From an uncultured Lachnospiraceae bacterium (GTDB taxonomy: Bacteria; Bacillota; Clostridia; Lachnospirales; Lachnospiraceae): DNA of 64,000 bases. The DNA lies in the NCBI GenBank assembly GCA_946549155.1, contig CAMNQN010000001.1:531-64530 (forward strand), written 5' to 3'. Positions 27,282 to 48,314 of this stretch are shown here, piece after piece. The translations under genes and the position numbers were made by a program. Under the pieces are notes generated by a model. It made no database searches, had not been told where the DNA came from, and saw nothing but the letters and a program-made list of their open reading frames with translations. The first letter of the stretch is position 1, and every line of letters begins with the position of its first letter.

Positions 27282-28256
27282 GTGAAGCCTATTTTATATA
27301 TTCTTATTCCTTGTTACAACGAAGAAAAGGTTCTTCCCATAACCTGCAATATGTTTTTAGGGAAGCTCTATTCGCTGATTAATGCCGAAAAAATTGGAGA
27401 CAAAAGTCGTATTTTATTTATAAATGACGGTTCTAAAGATGGTACCTGGGAGATTATTTGCGATCTGGCAAGGGGGGATGCACATTACATAGGCATTAGT
27501 CAGAGCAGGAATAGAGGGCATCAGAATGCTGTGCTTGCTGGATTAATGGAAGCTAAGGACAGGTGTGATATTACGATTTCTATTGATTGTGATGGGCAGG
27601 ATGATATTAATGCCATGGATACTATGCTCGAAGAATACCAGGGTGGGTGTGAGATTGTATATGGAGTACGTAGCAGACGTGATACAGATACTTTTTTTAA
27701 ACGGACCACTGCGGAGGGATTTTATAAGTTCCTGAATTGGATGGGAGCAGAAGTGGTTTTTAATCATGCGGATTATCGTCTTGTGTCAAATCGGGTGTTG
27801 CGGGAATTTGTTAATTTTGAAGAGGTAAATATTTTTCTGAGAGGAATGTTTCCGTTAGTGGGATTTAAAAGTACAAGTGTCTACTATGAGAGAACGGAGC
27901 GGATTGCAGGGGAGAGTCACTATACGCTAAAGAGGATGTTGGGGTTGGCGTTTGACGGGATAACAAGTCTGTCGGTGAAACCAATTCGTATGATAGCGTC
28001 TTTGGGGTGTATTGTGGCATTACTGAGTTTTATAGGGATTATTTGGGCTATAGTGGGCAATTTTACCGGTCATACCATATCGGGATGGGCCAGCACGATT
28101 TGCATCATTTGTTTTATGGGAGGCATTCAGTTGTTGTGTCTTGGCGTGATAGGGGAATATATTGGGAAGATTTATATGGAGACGAAACGCAGGCCCCGGT
28201 ACATTATCAGTGAGAGAACGGATGGGATGACGGGTGAAGGCTCAGGCAATCCCTGA
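27282..28256 (+). CDS. GtrB-like polyprenyl-phosphate glycosyltransferase (GT2 with two C-terminal TM helices), copy 1
   Basis: GTG start 9 nt after AGGGAGGA. LIPCYNEEKVLP, NDGSKDGT, SQSRNRGHQNA, DCDGQDD. C-terminal helices and RPRYIISE. Confidence 0.85.
   Translation: MKPILYILIPCYNEEKVLPITCNMFLGKLYSLINAEKIGDKSRILFINDGSKDGTWEIICDLARGDAHYIGISQSRNRGHQNAVLAGLMEAKDRCDITISIDCDGQDDINAMDTMLEEYQGGCEIVYGVRSRRDTDTFFKRTTAEGFYKFLNWMGAEVVFNHADYRLVSNRVLREFVNFEEVNIFLRGMFPLVGFKSTSVYYERTERIAGESHYTLKRMLGLAFDGITSLSVKPIRMIASLGCIVALLSFIGIIWAIVGNFTGHTISGWASTICIICFMGGIQLLCLGVIGEYIGKIYMETKRRPRYIISERTDGMTGEGSGNP
27288..28222 (+). repeat. 935-bp direct repeat, copy 1 (gtrB paralog body)
   Basis: Collinear with 37569..38503. 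The offset of 10,281 bp is identical at the start, the middle and the end, so I detected no net indel. Contains an exact 50-nt match (27747-27796 = 38028-38077). Confidence 0.85.
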
Positions 28257-28467
28257 TTCAGAAAAAATGATAAAGATATTTTCACGTTTGCATAAGCGTA
28301 GGTGTTAAAAGTAAGCATGCCACGTATCATAAGCATGTTTCATAATCAATGTGTTAAAACACCGTGTGGTTTGTTTTTAGAGTAGGACCTACAATTATTA
28401 CGAGAACTTAGGTTATGTAGGAAATAGGTAATAGATGTTTTAAAATGCGTATTATTCAGGAGAACTT

Positions 28468-30066
28468 ATGAAGAGAATAATTATTCGGAGCTTAAGCTTT
28501 AGTATAATTTTATTGGTTTTATTTAATATAGTTTCAGAAATATTAAAAAAACCTAAGAATTCACAGTGGGATACGAGCGGTCTCGAATATACAAACAAAT
28601 ATCCGGGGCTTTTTGATGTTGTTTTTTCTGGAACAAGTATAACGATCATGAATGTAAGTAGTGAAGAATTATATACAGAATATGGTATTGCAGCAGTTAC
28701 GCTCGGAGAACCAGAACAGCCTATGTTTTTAACATATTATACGTTGTTAGAAGCACTGAATTATCAATCACCTAAAGTTGTATTTTTAGATATTAATTCT
28801 TTATTTTATTCGGAAAGTATGCTTCGAAATAAAATCAACGATTATGAACATTATTATTTACATTTTTCGTTGGATAGCATTAGAAACCCCATAATTAAAT
28901 ATGAAGCTTTTCAGGCTGCTAAAGAGTTGAAACCAGATTTAGACATATTTAATTACTTCTCTTCAATATATTATAACCATTCCAATTGGGAAGAACTGGG
29001 CAAAACTAATTTTATTCGTAAGAGCGGAAAACAAGTGATGAATGGATATTTTATGAGTTTTACAATTGCAGAAGGCTTAGCTAAGTTACGTGACAGTATT
29101 GATATTGATTATGCTGAGAATGTAAATGAAGAGGAATTATTGGATTTCAATAAAACTTACCTCATGAAGATAGTGGAATTGTGTAAAGAAAAGAATGTAC
29201 AATTAGTTTTTTTAAGGGGAGGAGGAATTGATACAGCCTTAACCAGTGAAAAATATAATACCATAAATAAAATTGCAATAGACAACGATATTCCATTTAT
29301 TGATATGCTGCAGCATGACAAAGAAATGGGATTTGACTGGCGGTTTGATGCATCAGATGGAAATCATTTTAATATAATGGGAGCAAAAAAGTGGACAGAT
29401 TATTTGGGAGATTATTTAATAAATAATTATCGATTTGAGGATAGACGTGATGATTCGAGATATAAATTTTTAGAAGAAGAGGTGGATCGCTATCAAAATG
29501 CATTAGCGGTAATGCAAACAAAAATTGATTTACTTTCTGCTATTAACTTTGAACAGTATCTGAATGCGCTTAAAGCGGTTGATACAAGTAAAAATACTAT
29601 TTTCATTTCAGTAAGTGATGATGCTTCAAAAAATCTTTCAAAGAAAGACTGTGACAAGTTATCGGAGCTAGGACTCACATATAATTTGATGGATAAATTT
29701 AGATACAGTTATTTAGCTGTGTTGGATAACCATACATCAAGAGATCTACTGGAAGACTGTGGAGTAACCCTGGATGGTGAATTGGATAATGGAAGTAGGT
29801 ATCAACTATCAAGCGGAGGGTATTCTTCAGGAGTGCTGGCTAGCATTCGAGTTGATGGTTTGGAGTTGATACAGGGAGGGCGTGGAATTAATATTGTGGT
29901 ATACAATAAAGAATATGGAGAAGTTTTAAGCAGTGTTTATTTTGACACTTTTTTATATGAGAATCCGCCAACTATGAGAAGAATCAATGTGGACATAGTT
30001 CAGGAGCAATACGAGACAAGCGCTAATGTTTGGTCATCAGTGGACGATGTATTGGTTCAGGATTAA
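28468..30066 (+). CDS. Membrane-anchored DltD/SGNH-like acyltransferase/esterase with C-terminal ILEI/PANDER-like domain
   Basis: N-terminal TM. FSGTSITIMN (Ser block) and DASDGNHFN (D..H block). C-terminal FISVSDDASKNLSKKDCDKLSELGL and GGRGINIVVYNKEYGEVLSSVYFDT resemble FAM3/ILEI blocks. Sits 25 nt upstream of an MBOAT gene. Confidence 0.65.
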   Translation: MKRIIIRSLSFSIILLVLFNIVSEILKKPKNSQWDTSGLEYTNKYPGLFDVVFSGTSITIMNVSSEELYTEYGIAAVTLGEPEQPMFLTYYTLLEALNYQSPKVVFLDINSLFYSESMLRNKINDYEHYYLHFSLDSIRNPIIKYEAFQAAKELKPDLDIFNYFSSIYYNHSNWEELGKTNFIRKSGKQVMNGYFMSFTIAEGLAKLRDSIDIDYAENVNEEELLDFNKTYLMKIVELCKEKNVQLVFLRGGGIDTALTSEKYNTINKIAIDNDIPFIDMLQHDKEMGFDWRFDASDGNHFNIMGAKKWTDYLGDYLINNYRFEDRRDDSRYKFLEEEVDRYQNALAVMQTKIDLLSAINFEQYLNALKAVDTSKNTIFISVSDDASKNLSKKDCDKLSELGLTYNLMDKFRYSYLAVLDNHTSRDLLEDCGVTLDGELDNGSRYQLSSGGYSSGVLASIRVDGLELIQGGRGINIVVYNKEYGEVLSSVYFDTFLYENPPTMRRINVDIVQEQYETSANVWSSVDDVLVQD

Positions 30067-30091
30067 AGCTTATTGAATTTGGAGAACCCCA

Positions 30092-31669
30092 ATGACTTTT
30101 TTATCAGGAATATTTTTTGCCTTTTTATTGATTACATTTATAATATACTTTATAGTGCCTCTCAGGCTTCGCTGGATCGTACTTCTGGCGGCCAGTGTGG
30201 TTTTCTATTTGTCCTCCGGCGTACCGCAGATTTTATTTATTCTTCTGTCGTCTCTGCTGGTATACGGTGCGGCCAGATGGATAGATGTTTTATATACCAG
30301 GCAGGACCGCGAATTAAAAGAGGGGGAATTTAGCCGGGAAGAGAAAAAGGCGCGAAAGCTTTCTGACCGGAAAAAATGCAGACGTATCCTGAATGCGGCT
30401 GTACTCCTCTTGTTGCTGGTGCTTACATACTGCAAGATTGGCGGCTGGGTAATCGGAAGCCTGCGGGATGCCCTGGGCGAGGGCACGGTGGACTGGATGC
30501 AGGTGATTGTTCCGCTGGGCGTTTCATATTATACGTTTTCACTGATCTCCTACCTGGCGGATGTATATTGGAGGAAAGAGAAGGCGGAGAAGAATTATTT
30601 TAAGTTTACGCTGTTTGTAATCTATTTCCCGAAAATCTTGCAGGGACCGATTTCCAGACATAAGAATCTGGCGGCGCAGCTGACGGAGGGACATGCTTTC
30701 GAGTATAAGCGGGTCTGTTACGGACTGCAGCTTGCTCTGTGGGGATATTTTAAGAAGCTGGTGATTGCGGATCGGCTGGCTGTTTTTGTTAATCGGGTGT
30801 TTGGCAATTATATGGCATACAGCGGACTGATTTTTGTGGTTGCTACGCTGCTGGCCAGTGTACAGCTTTATGCGGATTTCTCCGGATGTATGGATATCGC
30901 CTCCGGCGTTTCCCAGATTTTCGGAATTGAGCTGGAGAAAAACTTTGACCATCCTTTCTTTGCGCGAAGTGCTGCGGAATTTTGGCGCAGATGGCATATT
31001 ACGCTGGGGACTTGGTTTAAGGACTATGTGTATATGCCGCTGGTGGTTTCCCCCAGAGTGAGCAGGATTGCCCAGAGGGTGAAAAAGATGTTTGGAGCCC
31101 GGACCGGAAAAGCGATGATGACCATCATTCCCACAGGTATTGTCTGGGTACTCACTGGTTTGTGGCATGGTACGGGATATAATTATATTGCCTGGGGACT
31201 GTACTGGGGCGGTATCATTATTTTTTCTACAGTGTTTGCTCCGGAGATTCGAAAACTGACTGCCTTTCTGCGGATTAATACAGAGACCAGCGGATGGAAG
31301 GTGTTTCAGATGGTACGCACTTTTTTGCTTTTCTCCGTTGGGCGGTTGATTACGATCCCAGGGCATTTGAGGACGACGCTGGATGTCCTGGAAAAGATCG
31401 GGGAGCAGTTTGACATCTGGATTCTCTTTGACGGATCTTTGTATAATTATGGACTGAATCAGAAAAACTTTATACTGGTGATGATTACGCTCTTTATTCT
31501 GTGGGCGGTGAGTATGCTGCAGGAGCGGGGCTGTCTGCGGGACAAAATTGCGGGACAGAATATTGTGTTCCGCTGGGCGATTTATTATATTGCTTTTTTC
31601 TCCGTGCTGATTTTTGGAATGTATGGAGCTGGATTCAATAATGCAGTGTTTGCGTATATGCAATATTAG
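30092..31669 (+). CDS. MBOAT-family membrane O-acyltransferase (DltB/AlgI/PatA-like)
   Basis: FWRRWHITLGTWFKDYVYMPL and GLWHG histidine blocks; polytopic. Confidence 0.9.
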   Translation: MTFLSGIFFAFLLITFIIYFIVPLRLRWIVLLAASVVFYLSSGVPQILFILLSSLLVYGAARWIDVLYTRQDRELKEGEFSREEKKARKLSDRKKCRRILNAAVLLLLLVLTYCKIGGWVIGSLRDALGEGTVDWMQVIVPLGVSYYTFSLISYLADVYWRKEKAEKNYFKFTLFVIYFPKILQGPISRHKNLAAQLTEGHAFEYKRVCYGLQLALWGYFKKLVIADRLAVFVNRVFGNYMAYSGLIFVVATLLASVQLYADFSGCMDIASGVSQIFGIELEKNFDHPFFARSAAEFWRRWHITLGTWFKDYVYMPLVVSPRVSRIAQRVKKMFGARTGKAMMTIIPTGIVWVLTGLWHGTGYNYIAWGLYWGGIIIFSTVFAPEIRKLTAFLRINTETSGWKVFQMVRTFLLFSVGRLITIPGHLRTTLDVLEKIGEQFDIWILFDGSLYNYGLNQKNFILVMITLFILWAVSMLQERGCLRDKIAGQNIVFRWAIYYIAFFSVLIFGMYGAGFNNAVFAYMQY

Positions 31670-31677
31670 GATACTAT

Positions 31678-31705
31678 TTCCTAAAAAAGCATTATGTGTT
31701 ATGAT
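31678..31705 (+). promoter_or_regulatory. Candidate sigma-70-type promoter for the three-gene cassette
   Basis: TTCCTA, 16-nt spacer, TGtTATGAT (extended -10), about 30 nt upstream of ATG 31735. Confidence 0.35.
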
Positions 31706-31734
31706 AATAAAATACAAAGGGTGAATATTGGTAT

Positions 31735-32184
31735 ATGCGATTAAATGAAGAATTATGTATGAAGTTCCCGGCAGTTTTGCGAGAAAAATTATTAAAAGGT
31801 GAAATTGAACTTCCGGATACTACAGAATTTGATTATAAGAAGCTGCTGACATACAGGGCCGTAGCGCGAAAAGCGGATGATAATCGAGAAGTTACCTTGG
31901 AAGATTTTAAATCTTATTTTGAGCTGAAAAAAACGCCTAAGAGTCCCAGAGGAATGCTTAAAGTCGATCTCTCGAAGGATCCTCATTATTATGGAGTATC
32001 AAGTTTTTTGAAAAAGGAAATAGTAGAACAGAAGATGAAATTTCCGAATCCCAATAAAAAAATGGCGGTAGGGTACGTATATAAAGAAGGAGGTCCTCAG
32101 GAGACAAAGACAAAAGATCAGCATGTGTGCTGGTGGCTTTATAGTAACGCAGATGTTAGCGGATTTAAGCTATGGGAGGGTTAA
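31735..32184 (+). CDS. Hypothetical protein (149 aa), first gene of low-GC cassette
   Basis: RBS AAGGGTGAATAT. No family recognised. Lys-rich and soluble. Confidence 0.6.
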   Translation: MRLNEELCMKFPAVLREKLLKGEIELPDTTEFDYKKLLTYRAVARKADDNREVTLEDFKSYFELKKTPKSPRGMLKVDLSKDPHYYGVSSFLKKEIVEQKMKFPNPNKKMAVGYVYKEGGPQETKTKDQHVCWWLYSNADVSGFKLWEG

Positions 32185-32187
32185 TGG

Positions 32188-32853
32188 ATGGAAAAAGAAC
32201 AGTGCTTTTGTATTGAAAATAATATTCTTTATTTAGAGCAGGTGTTGGTTGACTATATGGATATTCCAATATTCTTTCTGTGCAAAGATCAAAGCCAATA
32301 TTATGTTGTATTATGTACAGATATTGATGCGCTTAATTATATTATTGTGAAGGTGGCTTTGGGAGAGGTATATGGCTTACTGCATGGAAAAATTCCAATG
32401 AGGAACGTTATTTTGGAACAAAAGGAATATTGGGAAGTTATTTCCGGAGAGGAGATTTCTCTGGATACAGTAATAAGGCACGGGATAGCGTCTCTTGATA
32501 CAGCGGTTTTACCAGAGAAAGAAGCTTGTTTTAAGATATTGACGGATGAAATGAGAATATTTGTTCAGAAATTTGATAATGATTTTTTGGCTTCCGAAAA
32601 TTTTTCCAAAACTCAAAAGATAATACAAGAGGATGACAGGTGGATGATAGATGAAACAATGGAGGAGTTCAGAATTGAGCGATTTATTGTTATGGAAGAT
32701 TATACTTTTAAAATAAAATTGCAGCATGGGCGTGCCTCTACTGTGAACTATGAGGAAAAGTATGGAACGGATAGGAAGAAAGCCACAGTACTGTGTAAAT
32801 TGCAGGCATTAGAAGAATGGGAGAATGAAGATACAAATAATGCTGCTGCATAG
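32188..32853 (+). CDS. Hypothetical protein (221 aa), second gene of low-GC cassette
   Basis: Starts 3 nt after the upstream stop. RBS GAGGGTTAAT. Acidic C-terminal part. No family recognised with confidence. Confidence 0.6.
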   Translation: MEKEQCFCIENNILYLEQVLVDYMDIPIFFLCKDQSQYYVVLCTDIDALNYIIVKVALGEVYGLLHGKIPMRNVILEQKEYWEVISGEEISLDTVIRHGIASLDTAVLPEKEACFKILTDEMRIFVQKFDNDFLASENFSKTQKIIQEDDRWMIDETMEEFRIERFIVMEDYTFKIKLQHGRASTVNYEEKYGTDRKKATVLCKLQALEEWENEDTNNAAA

Positions 32854-32864
32854 AGGGTGAATAT

Positions 32865-33269
32865 ATGGAAAAAGAACAAAACGCACAGAGCGTATTACAT
32901 TTGGATAAAATCGTTTTTGATAAAATTGAGTTTAAAAGACTGGGCATCGCGTCAGATAATGAACTGGAGTTGGAAATAAAATCTAATATTGCGCAAAGAC
33001 AGGATGCGGAAGTGTACAGGGTTACGCTGATATTAATCGGAAATAAGCCAGGGGAATATGTTTTTTAAATTAGTCTTACCGGATTTTTTTCGTTTCAGCA
33101 AAATGCAGAAATTACAGAAGAGCTAAGGCATGCATTGATTACAAAAAATGCGGTTGCTATTTTAATGCCATATTTGAGGAGTGAGGTTTCTCTTTTGACG
33201 GCCCAACCGGGTATGGAATGTGTAGTTTTGCCTGCATTTAATATTAACAGAATACTGGAGAATAATTAG
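32865..33269 (+). pseudogene. SecB-like chaperone gene interrupted by an in-frame TAA (33066-33068)
   Basis: The 67-aa track ORF (LHLDKIVFDKIEFK, EVYRVTLILIG, GEYVF) continues in the SAME frame after the TAA. The continuation reads ISLTGFFSFQQNAEITEELRHALITKNAVAILMPYLRSEVSLLTAQPGMECVVLPAFNINRILENN. This aligns to E. coli SecB blocks (FQIQRIYTKDISFE, DVYEVVLRV, CEVQQAGIFSI, NILFPYARECITSMVSRG..LNLAPVNF). Confidence 0.7.
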
Positions 33270-33325
33270 TTCCTATTCGTTAATAGATAATATTTGGAAT
33301 GATTATTGTAGAGGAGAATAATATA

Positions 33326-33553
33326 ATGGAAGAAAAGGTATTAGCATTATTACAGGGAGAATTTCCTGAAGTGGATTTTTTAGCATCAGAGGAGCTGGTA
33401 GATGACGGGATTTTGGATTCCCTGACGCTGACGGGTATCATCGCGGCGCTGACGATGGAGTTTGATATCACGATTCCCTATGAGGAGATTGTGGAGGAGA
33501 ATTTTAATTCCATCGCGGGAATGGCCGCTATGGTGGAACGGCTGATGGAATAG
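33326..33553 (+). CDS. Acyl/aminoacyl carrier protein (DltC/ACP-like)
   Basis: 75 aa, acidic. ILDSLTLTGIIAAL contains the DSL phosphopantetheine-Ser motif. GAGGAG RBS before ATG 33326 (the track start 33299 is probably too long). Confidence 0.8.
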   Translation: MEEKVLALLQGEFPEVDFLASEELVDDGILDSLTLTGIIAALTMEFDITIPYEEIVEENFNSIAGMAAMVERLME

Positions 33554-33558
33554 CGAAG

Positions 33559-33586
33559 AGCTTGCGCGAAGAGCGCAGGCTTTTTG
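33559..33586 (+). terminator. Intrinsic-terminator-like hairpin between the carrier-protein and ligase genes
   Basis: AGCTTGCGC-gaaga-GCGCAGGCT: 9-bp stem with one G-U pair, followed by TTTTTG. Confidence 0.5.
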
Positions 33587-33642
33587 CAATTCTGGTGGGA
33601 TGTGCCTGACAAGGAAAAAAGCGGAAGAAGGGAAACGCAGAA

Positions 33643-35685
33643 ATGTATAGAACGATAGTGGAAGCGATATTGGAACATGGAAAAAACAGACCGGACAAGC
33701 TGGCAGTGGGCTTTAAAAAGGTCCGGATTACTTATGGGGAACTGGCAAGACAGATACAGATAATGGCTGGGCAGCTGCGGAGGGAATACGGTATTCAGAA
33801 GGGTGATTTTGTGATGATTACCGGAGTGTCAAAGCCGGAATATGTATCTGCTTATCTGGCGATTCAGTATCTGGGCGCCGTTTCGATTCCCATGGATAAG
33901 ACGGCCCGTGAGGAGACGGTACTGGATGTGTACCGCTATGTGCAGCCCAGGCTGATGCTGACGGACAGCAAAATCCAGGCGGAGGATGTCCGGCTCGTAT
34001 CTTTGAAGAGCCTGTATGGGTCGACGGCGGAGAGCGCTGTGCATGAGTCGGAGGGGCCATTGGCTTACCAGCCTCCGGAAAATGACGTGGTGGCGGAGAT
34101 TTTGTTCACAACGGGAACCACAGGAAAACCGAAGGGAACCATGCTGAGCATCGGGAATATCTATGCCAGTATGCACAATACCTGGCATGGAGTGGGCATG
34201 GAGCCGGAGGATACGGTTCTGATTCCTGTGCCGCTCTGTCATTCCCTGGGGATGCGTGTGATGCGAACCGCGTTGTATATTGGAGCCACGGTGGTGATTC
34301 AAAACGGGTTTGCCTTTGCAAAGGAACTGGAAAATAACATAGAGGCTTTTCATTGTACGGGACTGGTGAGCGTGCCTGCCTCTATGGAGGTGATTTATCG
34401 CCAGATGGGCGACCGTTTTCCGGAAATCATGGGAAAACTGCGGTATATGGAAGTGGGAGCCGGTTCCCTTGGGTTTGACATGAAAAAGAAGCTTTGCAGG
34501 GTTCTGCCGGATACCAGAATCGTGAATACCTGGGGCTCTACGGAGACCGGAGGGGCTATTTTCCTGAAGGTGTCGGAGCATCCGGAGAAGTTTGCGTCCA
34601 TTGGGAAACCCATCGACACGGTGGAACTGAAAGTGGTGGACAGCCAGGGAAGGACCGTGGCGGCCCGGGACATGGAGTCTGCCGGACGGATGGTTCTTCG
34701 CGGGGCTATGCAGATGCAGGGATATTATCATATGCCGGAGGCTACAAAAAGTACGTTGGTGGATGGCTGGCTTTATACGAATGATATGGTTTATACGGAT
34801 GAAGACGGTTATGTGTATATGCTGGGACGGGCGGATGACATCATTAATGTGGGAGGCGAAAAGGTGTCGCCCATTGAGGTGGAAAATATTGCCCAGGAAT
34901 TCGAGGGGATTCGGGAATGCGCCTGCGTCGGCGTGGCGGATCCGGAGGGTATTTTGGGACAGATTCCGGTGCTTTATGTGGTGCCGGAGGATGGTCGGTT
35001 TGAGCAGGACGAGCTGGTCCGGTATCTGGCAAGCAGGCTGGAGAAATATAAGCTGCCGCAGAGGTATGTGGTGATCGGGGAGCTCCCCAGAAATCGTATG
35101 AAAAAGCTGGATCGGAAGGCGCTTTTGCGGATGTGGCAGGAGACGGGAGATAGTCCATTGATGAATGAGGTGGTTCGTAATATTTTAAGCCGGAGAAGTG
35201 TCAGGGACTTTACGGAAAAGGAGATTCCCAGGGCAAATCTGGAAATGATTCTGCAGTGCGGGCTTTATGCCCCCAGCGGACATAATATGCAGACCTGGAA
35301 ATTTACGGTGATACAGGATGCGTCAAAGATTGAGAAATTCAAGGAAATCGTAGGGAAGGCAGCGAAGGAGAACAAGGTGTATTTTTACGGATTGAATAAT
35401 CCCAATGCGCTGATCCTGATTTCCAATGATAGAAGAAATGCAAATAGTATACAGGACAGCGCCTGCGCGGCGGAGAATGTGATGCTGGCGGCGAATTCCT
35501 ACGGGATAGGTTCTGTGTGGATTAACGCGCTTCACACGATCTGCGATGTGCCCGAGATCCGGGCGCTGCTTCAGGCCTATGGAATACCGGATACGCATAT
35601 TGTGTGGGCAACGATTGCCATGGGATATCCGGAAAAACCGGGTAAGCTGCTGGCAAAGAAGCAGACAGTGATCCATTGGGTTTAA
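33643..35685 (+). CDS. ANL-superfamily adenylating enzyme (AMP-dependent ligase) fused to a C-terminal nitroreductase-fold domain
   Basis: FTTGTTGKPKGTML, NTWGSTETGG, YTNDMVYTDEDGYVYMLGRADDIINVGGEKVSPIEVE, KKLDRK. From about aa 500: ILSRRSVRDFTEKEIP and APSGHNMQTWKFTVIQD (nitroreductase family). Single 680-codon frame. Confidence 0.85.
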   Translation: MYRTIVEAILEHGKNRPDKLAVGFKKVRITYGELARQIQIMAGQLRREYGIQKGDFVMITGVSKPEYVSAYLAIQYLGAVSIPMDKTAREETVLDVYRYVQPRLMLTDSKIQAEDVRLVSLKSLYGSTAESAVHESEGPLAYQPPENDVVAEILFTTGTTGKPKGTMLSIGNIYASMHNTWHGVGMEPEDTVLIPVPLCHSLGMRVMRTALYIGATVVIQNGFAFAKELENNIEAFHCTGLVSVPASMEVIYRQMGDRFPEIMGKLRYMEVGAGSLGFDMKKKLCRVLPDTRIVNTWGSTETGGAIFLKVSEHPEKFASIGKPIDTVELKVVDSQGRTVAARDMESAGRMVLRGAMQMQGYYHMPEATKSTLVDGWLYTNDMVYTDEDGYVYMLGRADDIINVGGEKVSPIEVENIAQEFEGIRECACVGVADPEGILGQIPVLYVVPEDGRFEQDELVRYLASRLEKYKLPQRYVVIGELPRNRMKKLDRKALLRMWQETGDSPLMNEVVRNILSRRSVRDFTEKEIPRANLEMILQCGLYAPSGHNMQTWKFTVIQDASKIEKFKEIVGKAAKENKVYFYGLNNPNALILISNDRRNANSIQDSACAAENVMLAANSYGIGSVWINALHTICDVPEIRALLQAYGIPDTHIVWATIAMGYPEKPGKLLAKKQTVIHWV

Positions 35686-35703
35686 TTACTGAAAGGACGG
35701 ATA

Positions 35704-37521
35704 ATGGGAGGGTATCATATGTTGAGCACTGCGCAGTTTGGCTGGAATGAGTCTGATACAGAGGGCGACAGGAAGAAAATAAGAAAGAAATGGTCAGTGG
35801 TATGGGTGCTGCTGCTATTCGCATCGTTTCTTTTGGCAATGCCGGTCTATGCTTATAATTTTTTTACGGACTATCCGTTTTACCAGGCCAGGCCGGACAC
35901 GGAAGATCCACGTATTTTGATGGTGGGAAACAGTCTCACTTATACGAATGATATTCCTGCGCTGTTAAGATACATGTGCAGGGACACGGGCATCAATGCT
36001 GCGGTGGACAGCGTTACACAGGGAGGGCATTCCCTCACTCAGTACGCTTATCCGACGACGGCATGGGAAGAGCAGCTGCATGAGAAGATAATGACAAAGC
36101 TGACCACGCAGAAATGGGATTACGTGATTCTCCAGGGGAGAAGCGATGAGACAATCGTGAATGAGGAGAGTATGCGCAGAGCAGTGGCGTATTTTTATCC
36201 GTATATAAAAAATGCAGGCGCTCAGATGGTGCTTTATCTGACCTGGGCGCCGGATTATGGAACGGGCGGATACGACATAGATGCCAGACAGGGGGAGATT
36301 GCCAAGGTATATTACAGTATCGCAAGGCAATATAACTGCGCTTTGGCGCCTTCCGGGATCGCGTTTGCCAGGGAGCGCAGGCTTTATCCGGATTATGATC
36401 TGTATTACAGCAGCAGCGACCGGCTCCATCCTAATCTGTCCGGCAGCTATTTATCCGCGTGCTGCATTTATGCTACCCTGTTTGGAAAAAGTCCGGATCA
36501 TATTTCTTATACGGCGGGACTTGCCTCGGAAAAGGCGGGGGCTTTGCGGGGGATTGCCTCAGATGTCACGTTACGACGCAGCAGAGAGGAAGTCCAGGTG
36601 ACGACGGCAAAAGCTGTCACCGGGGGCTATCAGCTGAAACCCGGCGGGAAAGTAAAGCTGGGGATTTCCGCATCCGCGGGGGTGCGTATGATCCGGACAT
36701 CCAGCAGCGATGAAGGCGTGGCTACGGTAAGCAGTACGGGAGTTGTCACAGCCAGGGCAGCCGGTACGGCCAGTATCACGGCGTTGATGAGCAATAATAA
36801 GAGTTTGACCTGGAAAATCGTGGTGACAGGTAACAGCAAGGTGACGCTGGGAGCGGGGGATACTGAAAAAATCGATTTTTCATCCAATGGCTTCCGGTGG
36901 ACCACTTCCAATAAAAAGATCGCCGTGATAAAGAATGGGACAATTACGGCGAAGGCGAAGGGAACAGCCACACTGACCGGAAAGCACAGCAGTGGTTTCC
37001 AGGTGAAGCTGAAGGTTACGGTAAAGGCGGCGCCAGAAAAGATTACGGTGAAAAATGCGCCCAAAACTCTTGCGGCCGGGAGGACTTTCCAGCTAAAGCT
37101 GAATGTTTCCAAGGTGCGGGTGACATACAAATCCTCTGCTCCGGGCGTTGTTTCTGTGTCAAAGCAAGGCGTGCTGACGGCGAAAGGTCCGGGCACAGCG
37201 AAAATTACGGTAAAAAGCTATAATGGAAAGAAAACCTCCTTCCGGGTGACGGTGACGGTGCTGGCAAAGAAGCTTACGGTTACCAATGTCAAGAGCGGTA
37301 CGACTATGAGAGTAGGACAGACCCGGAAATTGAAGGTGAGCTTCAGCCCGCAAAATGTATCCAGCCGGGCGGTCACCTATAAATCCAGCAATACAAGGGT
37401 ATTGAAGGTAAGTAAAAAGGGAACGATTACGGCGCTGCATTCAGGGAGGGCTAAGATTACGGTGACGGCGGCGGATGGGTCGAAGAAGAAGGCTGCGGTT
37501 GAAATTAGGGTGAGGAAGTAG
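35704..37521 (+). CDS. Surface SGNH-fold (DUF4886-like) esterase/acyltransferase with four Big_2-type Ig repeats
   Basis: TM/signal anchor. ILMVGNSLTY, QGGHSL, SSDRLHPNLSGSYL. C-terminal repeats of the type VATVSSTGVVTARAAGTASITA, GTITAKAKGTATLTG, GVLTAKGPGTAKITV, GTITALHSGRAKITV. Confidence 0.8.
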   Translation: MGGYHMLSTAQFGWNESDTEGDRKKIRKKWSVVWVLLLFASFLLAMPVYAYNFFTDYPFYQARPDTEDPRILMVGNSLTYTNDIPALLRYMCRDTGINAAVDSVTQGGHSLTQYAYPTTAWEEQLHEKIMTKLTTQKWDYVILQGRSDETIVNEESMRRAVAYFYPYIKNAGAQMVLYLTWAPDYGTGGYDIDARQGEIAKVYYSIARQYNCALAPSGIAFARERRLYPDYDLYYSSSDRLHPNLSGSYLSACCIYATLFGKSPDHISYTAGLASEKAGALRGIASDVTLRRSREEVQVTTAKAVTGGYQLKPGGKVKLGISASAGVRMIRTSSSDEGVATVSSTGVVTARAAGTASITALMSNNKSLTWKIVVTGNSKVTLGAGDTEKIDFSSNGFRWTTSNKKIAVIKNGTITAKAKGTATLTGKHSSGFQVKLKVTVKAAPEKITVKNAPKTLAAGRTFQLKLNVSKVRVTYKSSAPGVVSVSKQGVLTAKGPGTAKITVKSYNGKKTSFRVTVTVLAKKLTVTNVKSGTTMRVGQTRKLKVSFSPQNVSSRAVTYKSSNTRVLKVSKKGTITALHSGRAKITVTAADGSKKKAAVEIRVRK

Positions 37522-41919: not shown

Positions 41920-42166
41920 TATATTCAGGTATAGAATGCTTGAGGAATACAGTGAATCTTTTGGCTTGTAACAAGGAGGATAGCAATATGAAGCTGGAAG
42001 AAACGGAAAGGGATACAGTACTAGATTTTTTGAGAATTATTGCGCAATTAATTACTGGAGTTCCTTGTATAATTCAAAGCGCAGAGGAGTTCGATGAATA
42101 AAACGTTATTTGAAGCGGTAGGTTCTGCGAAATATGATAGAATTTGTTCGGGGAAGGGGAGAAAGT

Positions 42167-43627
42167 ATGGATTCAAAAGCTATCAAAACAATATTGGATA
42201 TAGGGGAAACTATTGCGGTAGAATTTAAACGTTGTGGAAATGGTATTGATAGTGACGTTTACGAAACGGTATGTTCCTTTTTAAACCGTTTTGGCGGAGA
42301 CATATTTTTAGGCGTACTGGATGATGGAACAGTTTCTGGTGTGCCTGAAAATGCTGCATCTGATATGGTAAAAAATTTCATAAGCTGTGTCAGTAATCCG
42401 TTATTGTTTACGCCGACAGTCTATTTATCGCCTCAAGTTATACAGTATGAAGGGAAAACGGTTATTCATATACATGTTTTACCAAGCGCGGAGGTGCACA
42501 GTTATAAAAAGACGGTTTATGATCGGGTAGATGATGCAGATGTAAAGGTAACAGCAACTTCTCAAATTGCGCAAATGTATATTCGTAAACAGGAAATTTT
42601 TACGGAGCGAAAAGTTTATCCTTATGTAAAGAAAGAAGATCTCCGGCTCGACTTATTTCCTAAACTTCGTGTTATGGCAGAAAATCAGAGTAGGGGGCGG
42701 GGGCATTTATGGAACAGTATGACAGATGATGAATTAATGAAAAGTACAAGGCTATTTACAATGGATCGCGTGACGGGTGAGCAGGGTTTTAATTTGGCGG
42801 CAGTTATGCTTTTGGGAAGAGATGATGTGATTTTGGATATTGTTCCGGCCTATGTGACAGATGCGTTGCTTCGCCGTGTTAATATAGACCGTTATGATGA
42901 TAGAGAAATGGTGCAGACAAATTTGATAGAAAGCTATGAGATTTTAATGGAATTTGGACGTAAGCATTTGCCGGATAAATTTTTCCTGGAAGGTGATCAG
43001 AGGAAGAGCCTGAGGGATATCATTACTCGGGAAATGATCGCAAATACATTAATTCATCGTGAATATACAAGCTCTTATCATGCAAAATTCGTGATCGGGG
43101 AAGAACGAATGTATGTGGAGAACGCAAATCGAGCTTCTCAGAATGCAGTTATTACGCCAAATAACGTGGAGCCATCACCGAAAAATCCAATTATTGCAGC
43201 TTTTTTTAGAAACATTGGATACGCAGATCAACTAGGTTCAGGTGTACGAAATTTATTTAAATATAGTAAATTTTATTCAGGCGGAGGCCCTGAGTTTATT
43301 GAAGGGGACATATTCAGAATTATTGTACCGCTGAAGGAAGAAAATAGGGAGGAAATAACCACCCAAACGTCCACCCAGTCCACCCAAACGTCCACCCAGT
43401 CCACCCAATCAAGCGGGATGGACTTGGAACAGGCAATTATTATGCTTATAGAGCGGGAGCCATTTCTTTCTCAAAAACAAATGGCTGAAAAATTGTGTTT
43501 AAATGTAAATACACTGAAGTATTATATGAAGAAAATGCGGGAAAAAGGGATGATTGAGAGAGTTGGTACCAGCCGAAAAGGAAAATGGATGGTGTCTGAA
43601 CATGGCAGTTCCTGCGGCAAATTTTAG
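42167..43627 (+). CDS. AlbA_2 (Schlafen-like) + HATPase_c_4-like + C-terminal wHTH protein
   Basis: GETIAVEFKRCG....FLNRFGGDIFLGVLDDGTVSGV (AlbA_2 pattern). ANTLIHREYTS. Thr/Gln/Ser repeat linker. C-terminal LSQKQMAEKLCLNVNTLKYYMKKMREKGMIERVG (wHTH). ATG 42167 follows GGGGAGAAAG. Confidence 0.7.
   Translation: MDSKAIKTILDIGETIAVEFKRCGNGIDSDVYETVCSFLNRFGGDIFLGVLDDGTVSGVPENAASDMVKNFISCVSNPLLFTPTVYLSPQVIQYEGKTVIHIHVLPSAEVHSYKKTVYDRVDDADVKVTATSQIAQMYIRKQEIFTERKVYPYVKKEDLRLDLFPKLRVMAENQSRGRGHLWNSMTDDELMKSTRLFTMDRVTGEQGFNLAAVMLLGRDDVILDIVPAYVTDALLRRVNIDRYDDREMVQTNLIESYEILMEFGRKHLPDKFFLEGDQRKSLRDIITREMIANTLIHREYTSSYHAKFVIGEERMYVENANRASQNAVITPNNVEPSPKNPIIAAFFRNIGYADQLGSGVRNLFKYSKFYSGGGPEFIEGDIFRIIVPLKEENREEITTQTSTQSTQTSTQSTQSSGMDLEQAIIMLIEREPFLSQKQMAEKLCLNVNTLKYYMKKMREKGMIERVGTSRKGKWMVSEHGSSCGKF
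43358..43410 (+). repeat. In-frame 21-nt tandem repeat (2.5 units) encoding (TQTSTQS)n
   Basis: ccacccaaacgtccacccagt occurs twice, then ccacccaatca, inside the AlbA_2 gene linker. Confidence 0.9.
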
Positions 43628-44769: not shown

Positions 44770-47658
44770 ATGGACAGCATACGGACAATTATACAGCGGC
44801 TGGGATATGAGAAGTCAGATGGATTGTTTTACGCATCGGAATTGTCCAGATGCAGTTTGCTATCCTGGCATGACAAGAGGGTATTGAAGGAGCTATTGCC
44901 GTATGCGGTATATATTGCGGATGGTAAGATTTTTGTTGCCTTTTTTAATGACTTGCATCTGCGGGAGAATAGTGAAATTCAATGTAAGATTTGGAATGCT
45001 CAGATACCGGTTATTATTTCTGATGAGGGCGAGCTGGTTAAGATTTATAATGGGCGAAGTATGCAGCTTGGGGATGCCCGGAAAGTGCTGCTCTCGCATA
45101 TTGGGGACTATGAGATAGAGCAATTTGATGAAACGTGTTCGTTTTCTTACTGGAATGTCACAAACGCTGATTTGACCGGTGAAAAAAGAGAAAATTCAGA
45201 CAGGACATATTTCAATGATTATTTGGTGGATAATCTCAAATTTCTCACGCAGCAGCTGAAGGAAAGGTATCATATAACCTTTGCCAATAAATTTGTTTTA
45301 CGGATTATATTTATTCGATACTTGATTGATCGAGGCATAGATATTGGATATGGTGGATTGAATGGTGACAGAGAAAAATCCCGGCATATTTTTTTGGAGA
45401 TTGTCCGGAATAAGAGTGAACTTTTTGCTTTGTTTGCTTATTTAAAAAATCGATTTAATGGGAATCTTTTTGAAATGGAGGAGGCGAAAGAGCGGGAAGA
45501 AATGAAAGAAGCGGCACTGTTTTTGGTGCATGTTTTCTTGACCGGGCAGATGGAGGCCAGGACGGGACAGTTATGGCTGTTTCCTTTTTATGACTTTAAT
45601 ATTATACCGATTGAATTGATCAGCAATATATACGAGATTTTGCTTGGACGTGAAAAGCAGAATAAAGATAAGGCTTTTTATACACCGGAATATCTTGCAG
45701 ATTTTATGGTTGAGCAGACGGTTGGAGCTTATTTAATTAAGGAACGGGAATGCACGGTGCTGGATCCGGCTTGCGGATCAGGGATCTTTCTGGTAAAGGC
45801 GCTTAGAAAGATTTTGGAGAAAAATGCGTCCGAAAATGGCTTTTTGGACAGAGACGAAATTAATCGGTTGGTTGAAGCCAATATATACGGTGTAGATTAT
45901 AACGAAGAGGCAATAGATGTTACGATTTTTTCTCTGTATATTACGCTATTTGATTATCAGGATCCTAAGAGCCTGAAGGATTTTAAGCTTCCTTTGCTTA
46001 AAGGGAAAAATATTCTTTATGGTGATTTTTTTGATGAGGATACATTGGAGCCTATGAATGGTATCAAGTTTAAATTTGTTATCGGAAATCCACCATGGGG
46101 CAGTGTGCAGCAGAATTTATATAAGGAATATTGCAAAAAAAGAGGGGTTAAACTTCAAAATGGAGAGATCAGTGTTGCATTTTTATTGAAAACATGGGAA
46201 ATGGGGGGTGCGGATACGGAATGCAGTCTCATTATTCCGTCTAAGATTTTATATAAGGGCAAGGCACCTTCCTGTGATTTTCGGAAAAAAATGCTGACAG
46301 AAGTAGAGATGCGCCAGGTATTGGAGCTTTCTGCTGTAAGAAAACAAATATTTAAGGGGGCGGTAGCACCGGCAGCGGTGTTGTCTTTCGTATGCAAAAA
46401 AGCACTTTATGAACATAAGGTGGAGTATATTAGTTTAAAGCCCAATGAATATTTAAGACGTTTCGGCATTATAATGGTTGAACCAGATGATATTAAATAT
46501 GTAGAGCAGAGCTCTCTCTTACAATATGATGAATTGTGGAAAATATTGGTGTATGGAGGATATTGGGATTTTGAGCTGCTTCATTCGATGAAAAGAAAGC
46601 TGCAAACGATTAGGGATATTGAAAAGAAGTATGGGCTTATGCCAGGCGAAGGCATTCAGGATCATTATGGAGATGGCCAGGATGCGTCGCATTTGACAGG
46701 ACGTATATTGTTGGATTCTGATGGATGTATTGAACATTTTAAGTTAAATACAGAGCATCTGGAGGTGTTTCAAAAAGAACGGATTCATCGTCCGCGAAAA
46801 AAGGAATTGTTTGAACCGCCGTATGTTTTTTTCAAGAAAGGATTGGATTGCAGCAATTATTCTATCAAGGCTGTTTATTCGGAAAAGCGGCTGGTTTATA
46901 AAGAGACGGTTAATTGCATTAAAGGAACCTTTGCGGATAAAGGGGTGCTTTTAAATCTTGCAGGACTTTTTAATTCTTCTTTATTTTCCTATTTTAATCT
47001 CATGCTGGGTTCTTCGGTAGGCATTGAACGGGAGCAGATGTTTTCTACGGAGTTGGAAAATTTCCCGTATGTTTATAGTGAAGAGCTGGTTATGCTTGTT
47101 CAAAAGATTCAGGAAGCTGCGGAAGCGGGAAATGATATAACGGATTGGAAGGAAAAGCTGGATCAGTGTGTCCTTGAAATGTACGGCGTACAGGACAATT
47201 ATTTTGTGGATTATGCTTTGAAAATTCAGATTCCAATCTTGTGCGGAAAATACAGAAAGACAAAATGCAGGGAAGAGATTTTGAAAAAATACGCACAGGT
47301 TTTTATGGAATTATGGCAGGCGCGGTTAGAAAGAACAGGTTTGTATTATTCTATTTACTTATACCCGGATATAAAAGGAAAATTTACGGCGTTTCAGATG
47401 AAACTTTCTTTTGAAAAGCTGGATAAAGAGATACATGTTGTGGAAACCATCGATGATGATGTGGAGTTGCTCACCAAATTTATGATTTATAAGTGGAACG
47501 ATTGCTTTTTTCAGACAAAGAATGTGGTGGAGTTTGATGAAGATTCTTTTGTAATTGTGAAAACTGCAGATTCGAAAAACTGGCACCCTGCTATGGCGAT
47601 AAAGGATAGTTATAAGGCTTTAAATACAGTACTTCTGGGAGAGGAGGACTGGAAATGA
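44770..47658 (+). CDS. Large gamma-class N6-adenine DNA methyltransferase, MmeI/PglX-like architecture
   Basis: Motif I VLDPACGSGIFLV (V330). Motif IV VIGNPPWG (N440). Upstream FNGNLF and IPIELISNIYEILL blocks. About 500 aa C-terminal to the catalytic core, presumably the specificity region. Confidence 0.8.
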   Translation: MDSIRTIIQRLGYEKSDGLFYASELSRCSLLSWHDKRVLKELLPYAVYIADGKIFVAFFNDLHLRENSEIQCKIWNAQIPVIISDEGELVKIYNGRSMQLGDARKVLLSHIGDYEIEQFDETCSFSYWNVTNADLTGEKRENSDRTYFNDYLVDNLKFLTQQLKERYHITFANKFVLRIIFIRYLIDRGIDIGYGGLNGDREKSRHIFLEIVRNKSELFALFAYLKNRFNGNLFEMEEAKEREEMKEAALFLVHVFLTGQMEARTGQLWLFPFYDFNIIPIELISNIYEILLGREKQNKDKAFYTPEYLADFMVEQTVGAYLIKERECTVLDPACGSGIFLVKALRKILEKNASENGFLDRDEINRLVEANIYGVDYNEEAIDVTIFSLYITLFDYQDPKSLKDFKLPLLKGKNILYGDFFDEDTLEPMNGIKFKFVIGNPPWGSVQQNLYKEYCKKRGVKLQNGEISVAFLLKTWEMGGADTECSLIIPSKILYKGKAPSCDFRKKMLTEVEMRQVLELSAVRKQIFKGAVAPAAVLSFVCKKALYEHKVEYISLKPNEYLRRFGIIMVEPDDIKYVEQSSLLQYDELWKILVYGGYWDFELLHSMKRKLQTIRDIEKKYGLMPGEGIQDHYGDGQDASHLTGRILLDSDGCIEHFKLNTEHLEVFQKERIHRPRKKELFEPPYVFFKKGLDCSNYSIKAVYSEKRLVYKETVNCIKGTFADKGVLLNLAGLFNSSLFSYFNLMLGSSVGIEREQMFSTELENFPYVYSEELVMLVQKIQEAAEAGNDITDWKEKLDQCVLEMYGVQDNYFVDYALKIQIPILCGKYRKTKCREEILKKYAQVFMELWQARLERTGLYYSIYLYPDIKGKFTAFQMKLSFEKLDKEIHVVETIDDDVELLTKFMIYKWNDCFFQTKNVVEFDEDSFVIVKTADSKNWHPAMAIKDSYKALNTVLLGEEDWK

Positions 47659-48314
47659 ACGGGCAGATAAACAGTAGTATCCGTCAGGCGCTGCGGCAGG
47701 ATGAATTTGAGCAGATTGTGGGGTATATTCTGAGCGTTTGTTGCCTTGTTCTGGATGATTTTCAGCGAAGAAAACGCACGCTGCCGAATGATGAAAACCG
47801 TATTAGAAGTATTATTTTGAACGAATATCTGGACGATGATGAGGTCAGAAAAAATTATGGGATGTCGGACTGTGAGTTTATTCCTGAAGTGCCGGAAAAT
47901 TATGATGGAGCCGGGCATTATAAAGGCAGGACAGATATCCGAATCAAAGTGAAATCAGATTTTGACAGGCGGGCTGCTTATTACATAGCAGAATGCAAAA
48001 GAATTGACGGAAGTCCTGACTTGAACAAAGCTTACGTTCACGAAGGAATTGCCAGGTATAGCAACAGAAAGTATTCTGCATATTTTGGGAAAAATATCAT
48101 GCTGGGTTTCGTTGTAAAGCCCTTGAATATAGCGGAGAATACAAAGCGAATTGAACAAATCCAAAATGAATTGGAGGATACCTGTATGCATGGAAAGTTT
48201 CGGCTGCTAGATACGCAGGCTTGCGGAGAAGTTTATAATTGTATTTATCAGATGGAAAAAGAGAAATTGGAACTTCGACATATTTTTTCGGATTTTTCCG
48301 ATATTATGGAATGA
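47655..48314 (+). CDS. Small PD-(D/E)xK nuclease-fold protein
   Basis: ATGA overlap with the methyltransferase gene. GRTDIRIKV (D94), then about 19 residues later YIAECKRIDG (E-x-K). Confidence 0.65.
   Translation: MNGQINSSIRQALRQDEFEQIVGYILSVCCLVLDDFQRRKRTLPNDENRIRSIILNEYLDDDEVRKNYGMSDCEFIPEVPENYDGAGHYKGRTDIRIKVKSDFDRRAAYYIAECKRIDGSPDLNKAYVHEGIARYSNRKYSAYFGKNIMLGFVVKPLNIAENTKRIEQIQNELEDTCMHGKFRLLDTQACGEVYNCIYQMEKEKLELRHIFSDFSDIME

Follow-up and report, generated by a model that had tools for sequence, protein, structure and literature searches.

The 64,000-nucleotide stretch analysed here (the window; contig CAMNQN010000001.1 of assembly GCA_946549155.1) comes from an uncultured bacterium of the Lachnospiraceae and carries, at positions 33643..35685 of the forward strand, a gene in which an adenylating enzyme of the ANL superfamily is followed by a nitroreductase-fold domain. 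The gene comprises 680 codons and translates without an internal stop. Its product holds three Pfam domains above their cut-offs: an AMP-binding domain (PF00501) at residues 12-362 (217.4 bits, cut-off 29.9), an AMP-binding_C domain (PF13193) at residues 412-488 (55.2 bits, cut-off 24.5) and a nitroreductase domain (PF00881) at residues 514-662 (94.1 bits, cut-off 23.5), the last covering model positions 1-167 of 167. A preliminary description, made from the DNA letters, had proposed one 680-codon frame whose first ~500 residues bear a complete set of ANL motifs and whose C-terminus bears the nitroreductase-family blocks RRSVRDF and APSGHNMQTW. The open reading frame (ORF) listing and the translation confirmed the frame, the Pfam search and the core motifs bore out the ANL assignment, and the two C-terminal blocks were found at residues 517-523 and 543-552.

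The junction between the two halves (...RMWQETGDSPLMNEVVRNILSRRSV...) was free of a homopolymer run or a frameshift scar in the DNA from 35090 to 35230, and the G+C content was continuous across it (0.53 to 0.51). The same continuous frame was present in other samples, as a 97%-identical protein of 680 aa (locus L142) and as a 76%-identical protein of 679 aa on two contigs (L143 and L144). No stop or frameshift was detected in any independent assembly, and the junction is thus as clean as had been supposed. The linker TGDSPLM (residues 501-507; 35143..35163, forward strand) is the least conserved stretch of the fusion family. In two relatives (L108 and L139) it is about 25 residues longer, charged and of low complexity, again with no stop, and these longer linkers argue for flexible tethering. 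The AlphaFold2 (AF2) model of the whole protein had a mean predicted local distance difference test (pLDDT) score of 89 and a predicted template modelling (pTM) score of 0.76. When this model was searched with Foldseek, only ANL structures were matched, and no solved chain covered both the ANL and the nitroreductase parts. Taken together, the protein was confirmed to be a genuine covalent fusion.

To place the fusion in its family, we searched 5.8 billion protein clusters (clusters were counted at 90% identity). More than 120 fused clusters of 672-722 aa were found, all of them 58-97% identical over 100% of the query and containing all three domains, and about 17 further fusion clusters, down to 39% identity, were present in a library of 50%-identity representatives. 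In a survey of genome loci, based on GTDB contigs with one genome per species and restricted to the best 80 loci, 74 of the 80 were fused, none of them with a stop, and most of these belonged to the Lachnospiraceae. Among a sample of 401 genera of Lachnospiraceae, the fusion occurred in 10 genomes. The same domain order, for which the preliminary description had suggested a database search, is therefore widespread, and Dlt-type neighbourhoods recur around it: the fusion is a conserved family, found in at least 74 species-level genomes, and is neither rare nor unique. The ratio of nonsynonymous to synonymous substitutions (dN/dS), computed against five relatives for each part separately, was 0.09-0.13 for the nitroreductase part and 0.12-0.17 for the ANL part, and because it is low in each, both halves are kept by purifying selection. 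The cultured hosts include Lactonifactor longoviformis DSM 17459 and Lachnospiraceae bacterium 3-1. Databases name the fusion merely 'AMP-binding protein' or 'long-chain acyl-CoA synthetase', and the literature searched yielded no account of an ANL-nitroreductase protein, nor of a Dlt-like module containing one.

Several variants on the family were also recorded. Seven fused contigs from metagenome-assembled genomes (MAGs) were labelled as Bacteroidota or Chloroflexi (L103, L105, L106, L116, L118, L120 and L130), and their fusions are nested in Lachnospiraceae or Oscillospiraceae clades; mis-binning is a more likely cause of these labels than transfer across phyla. In one Lachnospiraceae MAG (L098:8063-8632), the fusion is immediately followed by a separate gene for a 189-aa nitroreductase that shares 42% identity with the fused domain and could be a heterodimer partner. 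Two 50%-identity representatives of the same ANL clade carry other partners. In P0158 a PglD-like hexapeptide N-acyltransferase domain stands at the N-terminus, and in P0139 an unassigned 350-aa C-terminal domain replaces the nitroreductase domain. Alternative fusions like these mean that the ligase has acquired more than one kind of downstream partner.

The nitroreductase-fold domain occupies residues 508-680 (35164..35682, forward strand). It matched the structure of an FMN (flavin mononucleotide)-containing nitroreductase of Bacteroides fragilis (3EK3) with an E value of 8.6e-35. The next structure matches were small NAD(P)H oxidases/nitroreductases, and AlbA followed only at an E value of 1.4e-5. 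Among the NCBIfam models, the domain alone matched only NfsA, BluB, NfsB-like, FbiB-C and Acg types, all below their cut-offs, and no SagB, McbC or Ox-type dehydrogenase model was matched. Residue conservation was compared in 134 fused sequences and seven stand-alone relatives. R517, S519 and R521 were kept in 133-134 of the 134 fused sequences and in all seven relatives, as were A543, P544, D605, W626 and G661 (132-134 of 134), and Q550, W552 and N612 were likewise kept in 132-134 fused sequences and in six of the seven relatives each; for Q550 and G661 the count was 133-134. Position 672 was always K or R and K673 was near-invariant in the fused sequences; C608, N628, D635, R640 and H652 were also nearly invariant in the domain. 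R517, S519, R521 and G661 aligned with 3EK3, where the position of Q550 is occupied by Glu. Whether the domain has retained its FMN-binding residues had been proposed as a test of the fusion, and these residues were found to be conserved in the alignment with the FMN-bound 3EK3 structure family. Five positions (N548, G583, D596, N599 and Q604) were invariant in the fused clade only.

Genes that encode such a domain alone (about 175 aa, with 45-49% identity to the fused one) were present in about 17 of 201 sampled genera. Their neighbourhoods were unrelated and variable. Since none of these genes lay beside ANL, carrier or MBOAT (membrane-bound O-acyltransferase) genes, an origin of the fusion from a conserved pair of separate genes was rejected. 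The fused domain is therefore a complete, presumably FMN-binding version of a generalist NAD(P)H nitro/flavin reductase that exists on its own in anaerobes and that the ligase appears to have acquired.

The ANL part comprises residues 1-500 (33643..35142, forward strand) and was characterised by its core motifs, its solved relatives and Foldseek. Its N-terminal domain holds the motifs A3 (TTGTTGKPKG, 156-165), A4 (PLCHSLG, 197-203) and A5 (NTWGSTETGG, 295-304), and its C-terminal subdomain holds A8 (A7/A8; GRADDIINVGGEKVSPIEVE, 395-414) and the A10 lysine K488. In 93 family sequences the A3, A5 and A8 motifs and K488 were invariant or nearly so. The AF2 model matched two-domain ANL structures with E values of about 1e-45 and TMt of 0.85-0.87; the top matches were oxalate-, malonate- and o-succinylbenzoate (OSB)-CoA ligases, which were not discriminated. 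The best solved relatives by sequence, namely FadD5, MenE, the adenylation (A) domain of LgrA and the feruloyl- and 4-coumarate-CoA ligases, were about equidistant (E values of 1e-41 to 1e-54). The best NCBIfam models for the fusion were fatty-acid and OSB CoA ligases, all below cut-off. Orthology to DltA was rejected, as the DltA model TIGR01734 gave 134.5 bits against a cut-off of 559.85 and DltA was not among the 60 best solved relatives. This cut-off was reached nowhere else in the genome either.

In the alignment, His200 of the A4 motif PLCHSLG coincided with the PLFH His in MenE and FadD5, and the A domain of LgrA has its FDxS Asp at this position. As the Asp that binds an alpha-amino group is missing and His200 stands in its place, the substrate is most likely a carboxylic acid without an alpha-amine. 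The ANL half is of the acyl- or aryl-acid ligase type. In addition, the fused clade has its own invariant ANL residues (R208, G274, W297, S299, G304, F307, R349 and others), several of which lie in or next to A4 and A5. Most of them are kept in the nested relatives that lack the nitroreductase domain and are replaced in distant Dlt-like modules that lack this domain and have a carrier. This signature suggests that a particular acid goes with the nitroreductase domain.

The fusion gene lies in a long same-strand cluster of wall-glycopolymer genes that encodes a Wzt ABC transporter, glycosyltransferases, an LtaS-like sulfatase-fold protein, GtrII proteins and a CDP-glycerol glycerophosphotransferase. 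Upstream, on the same strand, a gene at 33326..33553 encodes a 75-aa carrier protein (PF00550, PP-binding); its ATG is at 33326, with GAGGAG 10 nt upstream, and its relatives start at the same Met. The phosphopantetheine serine is predicted to be Ser32 in LDSLTL, and the protein matched DltC and other acyl carrier protein models weakly. A DltB-like MBOAT membrane acyltransferase of 525 aa (PF03062) is encoded at 30092..31669 (forward strand); it matched the DltB model TIGR04091 with an E value of 2.6e-40, below cut-off, and homologues with 42-52% identity adjoin the fusion in relatives. Ahead of it, at 28468..30066 (forward strand), lies the gene for a 532-aa SGNH/DltD-like ectoprotein with an N-terminal membrane helix. 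In 13 homologues of the latter G55, S57, D294, D297 and H300 were invariant, giving the catalytic-type patterns G55-x-S57 and D297-x-x-H300, and its AF2 model (pLDDT 69) matched GDSL hydrolases, PatB and DltD in Foldseek. Its C-terminal domain, with a weak ILEI/FAM3-like match, may bind glycan. Downstream of the fusion, at 35704..37521 (forward strand), Pfam identified a 605-aa surface protein with an SGNH-like DUF4886 domain and Big_2 Ig-like domains. This gene directly follows the fusion in the 97%- and 76%-identical relatives and is also found in some more distant loci; its product is a possible accessory esterase or transferase.

The set of SGNH, MBOAT, carrier and fusion genes recurs in relatives in several gene orders. 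With a hidden Markov model of carrier proteins, a carrier gene was detected in 46 of the 47 fused loci that have flanks of at least 2.5 kb. In some relatives the locus has, in addition, a type II thioesterase gene and another ANL/carrier pair. The module shares the logic of the Dlt pathway, but its parts are not orthologous to the Dlt proteins or are related to them only very remotely, and it probably esterifies a sugar polymer of the cell wall. A scan of 31600-35800 for promoters and terminators gave nothing convincing.

The module region and its surroundings have further features. The base composition across 28000-36000 is a mosaic, with 30-33% G+C in the SGNH-like gene, 47-49% in the MBOAT gene and 51-54% in the carrier and fusion genes, which suggests that the module was assembled by recombination between lineages. 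Between the MBOAT and carrier genes lies a low-GC (~35%) insertion of three genes (31735-33269). The first two ORFs (149 and 221 aa; 31735-32853) had no match in Pfam, NCBIfam or PADLOC, and the third, which is SecB-like, is interrupted by an in-frame stop codon (TAA, 33066-33068). This insert is shared by the 97%-identical relative, in which the third gene is intact (134 aa), and is absent from the 76%-identical relative L143. The insert may be a toxin-antitoxin-chaperone or defence cassette. Two defence-type genes lie further along within the glycopolymer cluster (42134-43627 and 44770-48314): one encodes a Schlafen/AlbA_2 protein with a winged helix-turn-helix, and the other an Eco57I/MmeI-type restriction-modification methylase, followed by a 219-aa ORF of no named family. 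The same defence-type genes follow the module in the 97%-identical relative. Elsewhere in the same genome there are three more MBOAT genes, one of them on the short contig C253 beside a C-terminal fragment of another ANL ligase, a pair that may represent a second Dlt-like module.

The distribution of the flavin domain on the ANL trees bears on its function. Proteins without the nitroreductase domain were interleaved with fused ones, and the clade of the window's own fusion held two fused members (that of the window and one from a Marvinbryantia MAG) and seven without the domain. All four close relatives that lacked the domain and had adequate flanks were also without a carrier gene. In two of these (L111 and L123) the MBOAT gene directly abuts the ligase gene, and the other two (L109 and L115) are orphan ligases. 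Two distant modules that lack the nitroreductase domain (L055 and L061) retain a carrier, and therefore the carrier does not need this domain. So far the flavin domain has disappeared only jointly with the carrier, and this pattern is the best clue from the comparisons that the domain would act on a carrier-bound acyl group. A further observation concerns the cultured Bacterium 1XD42-54 (L054/L109), which has a 66%-identical ligase between nrdD and pseudopilin genes, with no nitroreductase domain, carrier, MBOAT or SGNH protein; this ligase is an orphan remnant or a repurposed enzyme.

We propose, with a probability of roughly 0.35, that the fusion enzyme is bifunctional and initiates, in the cytoplasm, a Dlt-like, carrier-dependent O-acylation of a wall glycopolymer, and that its FMN domain reduces the acyl group. 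In the pathway as we picture it from the sequences, the ANL half would adenylate a carboxylic acid without an alpha-amino group and would then thioesterify it onto the phosphopantetheine of the carrier. The tethered FMN domain would reduce the activated acyl group with NAD(P)H, for example at an alpha,beta-unsaturated or otherwise reducible function activated by the thioester. The MBOAT protein would transport the modified acyl group through the membrane; its esterification to the wall polymer would fall to the SGNH protein. NAD(P)H-dependent reduction was judged to be about twice as likely as dehydrogenation, for three reasons: the domain is most closely related to NAD(P)H reductases, its hosts live strictly anaerobically, and hydride can add to an alpha,beta-unsaturated system that a thioester has activated.

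Several observations weigh against this proposal. The active site of the nitroreductase domain is as in the generalist stand-alone family, whose neighbourhoods are unrelated, and its chemistry may not be specific to the acyl group. Within 6 kb, one fused locus (L078) lacks a carrier gene, and near the fusion no conserved gene was found that would supply a special acid. The joint loss of flavin domain and carrier amounts to only one or two evolutionary events, and the ANL clade persists without the domain in several lineages. Moreover, the linker, though short, varies, and two relatives have a long, charged one, which fits loose tethering and not a composite active site.

The strongest competing explanation, which we regard as possible but doubtful, is that the flavin domain is chemically uncoupled from the acyl group and serves as an obligate-dimer scaffold, as a redox or oxygen sensor that gates adenylation, or merely as a co-expressed NAD(P)H:FMN reductase. 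The nitroreductase fold is an obligate homodimer and as such would dimerise the ligase, and the peroxiredoxin-nitroreductase fusion 4EO3 shows that nitroreductase domains can be electron-donor modules. The nearly unchanged active site and the varying linker length agree with such a role, as does the loss of the domain at least once, and probably several times, with the ANL part left intact. However, purifying selection is strong on the FMN-site and pocket residues and not on the interface alone, and residues specific to the fused clade are invariant in both halves. The domain was lost together with the carrier gene, and ANL enzymes need no electrons. An unlikely alternative is that the domain is an FMN dehydrogenase or oxidase that desaturates the carrier-bound acyl group at the alpha,beta position or aromatises it, in the manner of the Ox domains of nonribosomal peptide synthetases (NRPSs), SagB/McbC, AlbA and OxzB. 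Dehydrogenases of the nitroreductase fold that act on thioester- or carrier-bound substrates are well known, and the joint loss with the carrier suits any chemistry on the carrier. At the same time, the domain of the fusion is minimal (~170 aa), is closest to NAD(P)H oxidase/nitroreductase structures and matched no family model of the SagB, Ox or McbC type; the strictly anaerobic hosts offer no obvious electron acceptor for an oxidase, and the Asp required for amino-acid substrates (Pro or Cys, for instance) is missing from the ANL half.

Two other explanations carry far less weight. It is quite improbable that the protein works in central or xenobiotic metabolism, as a soluble acyl-CoA synthetase/reductase whose envelope neighbours are incidental. 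The database names and the best NCBIfam models (fatty-acid and OSB CoA ligases) point in this direction, but none of the CoA-ligase family cut-offs was reached, the loci are always glycopolymer clusters, and synteny with the carrier, MBOAT and SGNH genes extends across many genera and gene orders. That two adjacent genes were joined by a sequencing or annotation error can practically be dismissed: the source assembly is fragmented and MAG-like (318 contigs), but the same continuous frame recurs in assemblies made independently from many samples and species, none of the 74 fused loci contains a stop, and dN/dS is uniform across the junction.

The reductive tailoring that we favour can be set against known systems. 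The Dlt pathway (DltA, DltC, DltB, DltX and DltD), which D-alanylates teichoic acids, has the same logic of parts, leading from an ANL ligase through a carrier and an MBOAT protein to an SGNH-type ectoprotein in a wall-polymer cluster. The module of the window differs from it in that its ligase is not DltA and bears an extra FMN nitroreductase-fold domain, its MBOAT and carrier proteins fall below the DltB and DltC cut-offs, its SGNH protein matches DltD only weakly in fold and not recognisably in sequence, and no DltX was identified in it. The acyl group is probably not D-alanine. The preliminary description had remarked that adenylation and flavin-dependent reduction or dehydrogenation are not normally joined in Dlt-type systems, and we indeed found no canonical Dlt system or paper with such a flavin domain. 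With respect to the stand-alone nitroreductases of anaerobes (3EK3 of B. fragilis; 5J6C, 3KWK and 3E10), the C-terminal 173 residues reproduce a member of this subfamily in full, at 45-49% identity to stand-alone genes of Lachnospiraceae and with the same FMN-binding and most of the same active-site residues. The fused domain differs in its attachment to an ANL enzyme and in its own invariant positions, whereas the neighbourhoods of the stand-alone genes vary.

There are precedents for joining an activating domain to a nitroreductase-fold domain. NRPS A-Ox modules do so, and FbiB combines a glutamyl ligase with a nitroreductase-fold domain in F420 synthesis. NRPS A modules with Ox domains (EpoB, BlmIII and MtaC/D) likewise place an adenylating domain and an FMN domain of the nitroreductase superfamily in one polypeptide and work on a carrier-tethered thioester. 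However, these are azoline dehydrogenases in multimodular synthetases with cyclisation (Cy) and peptidyl carrier protein domains, whereas the fusion has no Cy or condensation domain, uses a separate carrier and a small reductase-type nitroreductase domain, and would deliver its product to an MBOAT protein. In carboxylic acid reductases (A-T-R), as in thiotemplated tailoring triads of the PltF/PltL/PltE kind, a carrier is charged by an ANL enzyme, and its acyl group is then altered by an oxidoreductase while still tethered. Their redox partner, in contrast, is a short-chain dehydrogenase/reductase in the carboxylic acid reductases or an FAD enzyme of the acyl-CoA-dehydrogenase type, and the products are aldehydes or pyrroles for secondary metabolites. 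The oxazolone synthetase OxzB is a ThiF-nitroreductase di-domain protein (10.1101/2020.06.11.147165). Both OxzB and FbiB are precedents for an activating or ligase domain fused to a nitroreductase-fold FMN domain that carries out redox chemistry on the same small molecule. However, their activating folds are ThiF and CofE-like, not ANL, and neither has a carrier or an envelope context. As the adenylating part is ANL and not ThiF, the fusion does not belong to the OxzB-type ThiF-nitroreductase proteins.

Dlt-type esterification sets the surface charge, the resistance to cationic peptides and the immune recognition of Gram-positive bacteria, and to our knowledge it is understood almost only for D-alanine in Bacilli. 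The abundant Lachnospiraceae commensals of gut and rumen appear to rely on this export logic for a different acid, with a flavin domain as an extra part, which points to an unknown decoration of the wall polymer. For enzymology, the fusion offers an uncharacterised ANL-nitroreductase pairing for which cultured source strains exist. We consider it a little short of an even chance that gut and rumen Lachnospiraceae have an undescribed branch of Dlt-type acylation, in which a ligase-fused flavin domain would redox-tailor a carrier-bound acyl group and the wall glycopolymers would bear an enzymatically reduced (or desaturated) acyl ester. If this is true, a flavin-dependent step would be described for the first time in a Dlt-like pathway, and ANL enzymes would gain a new catalytic partnership.

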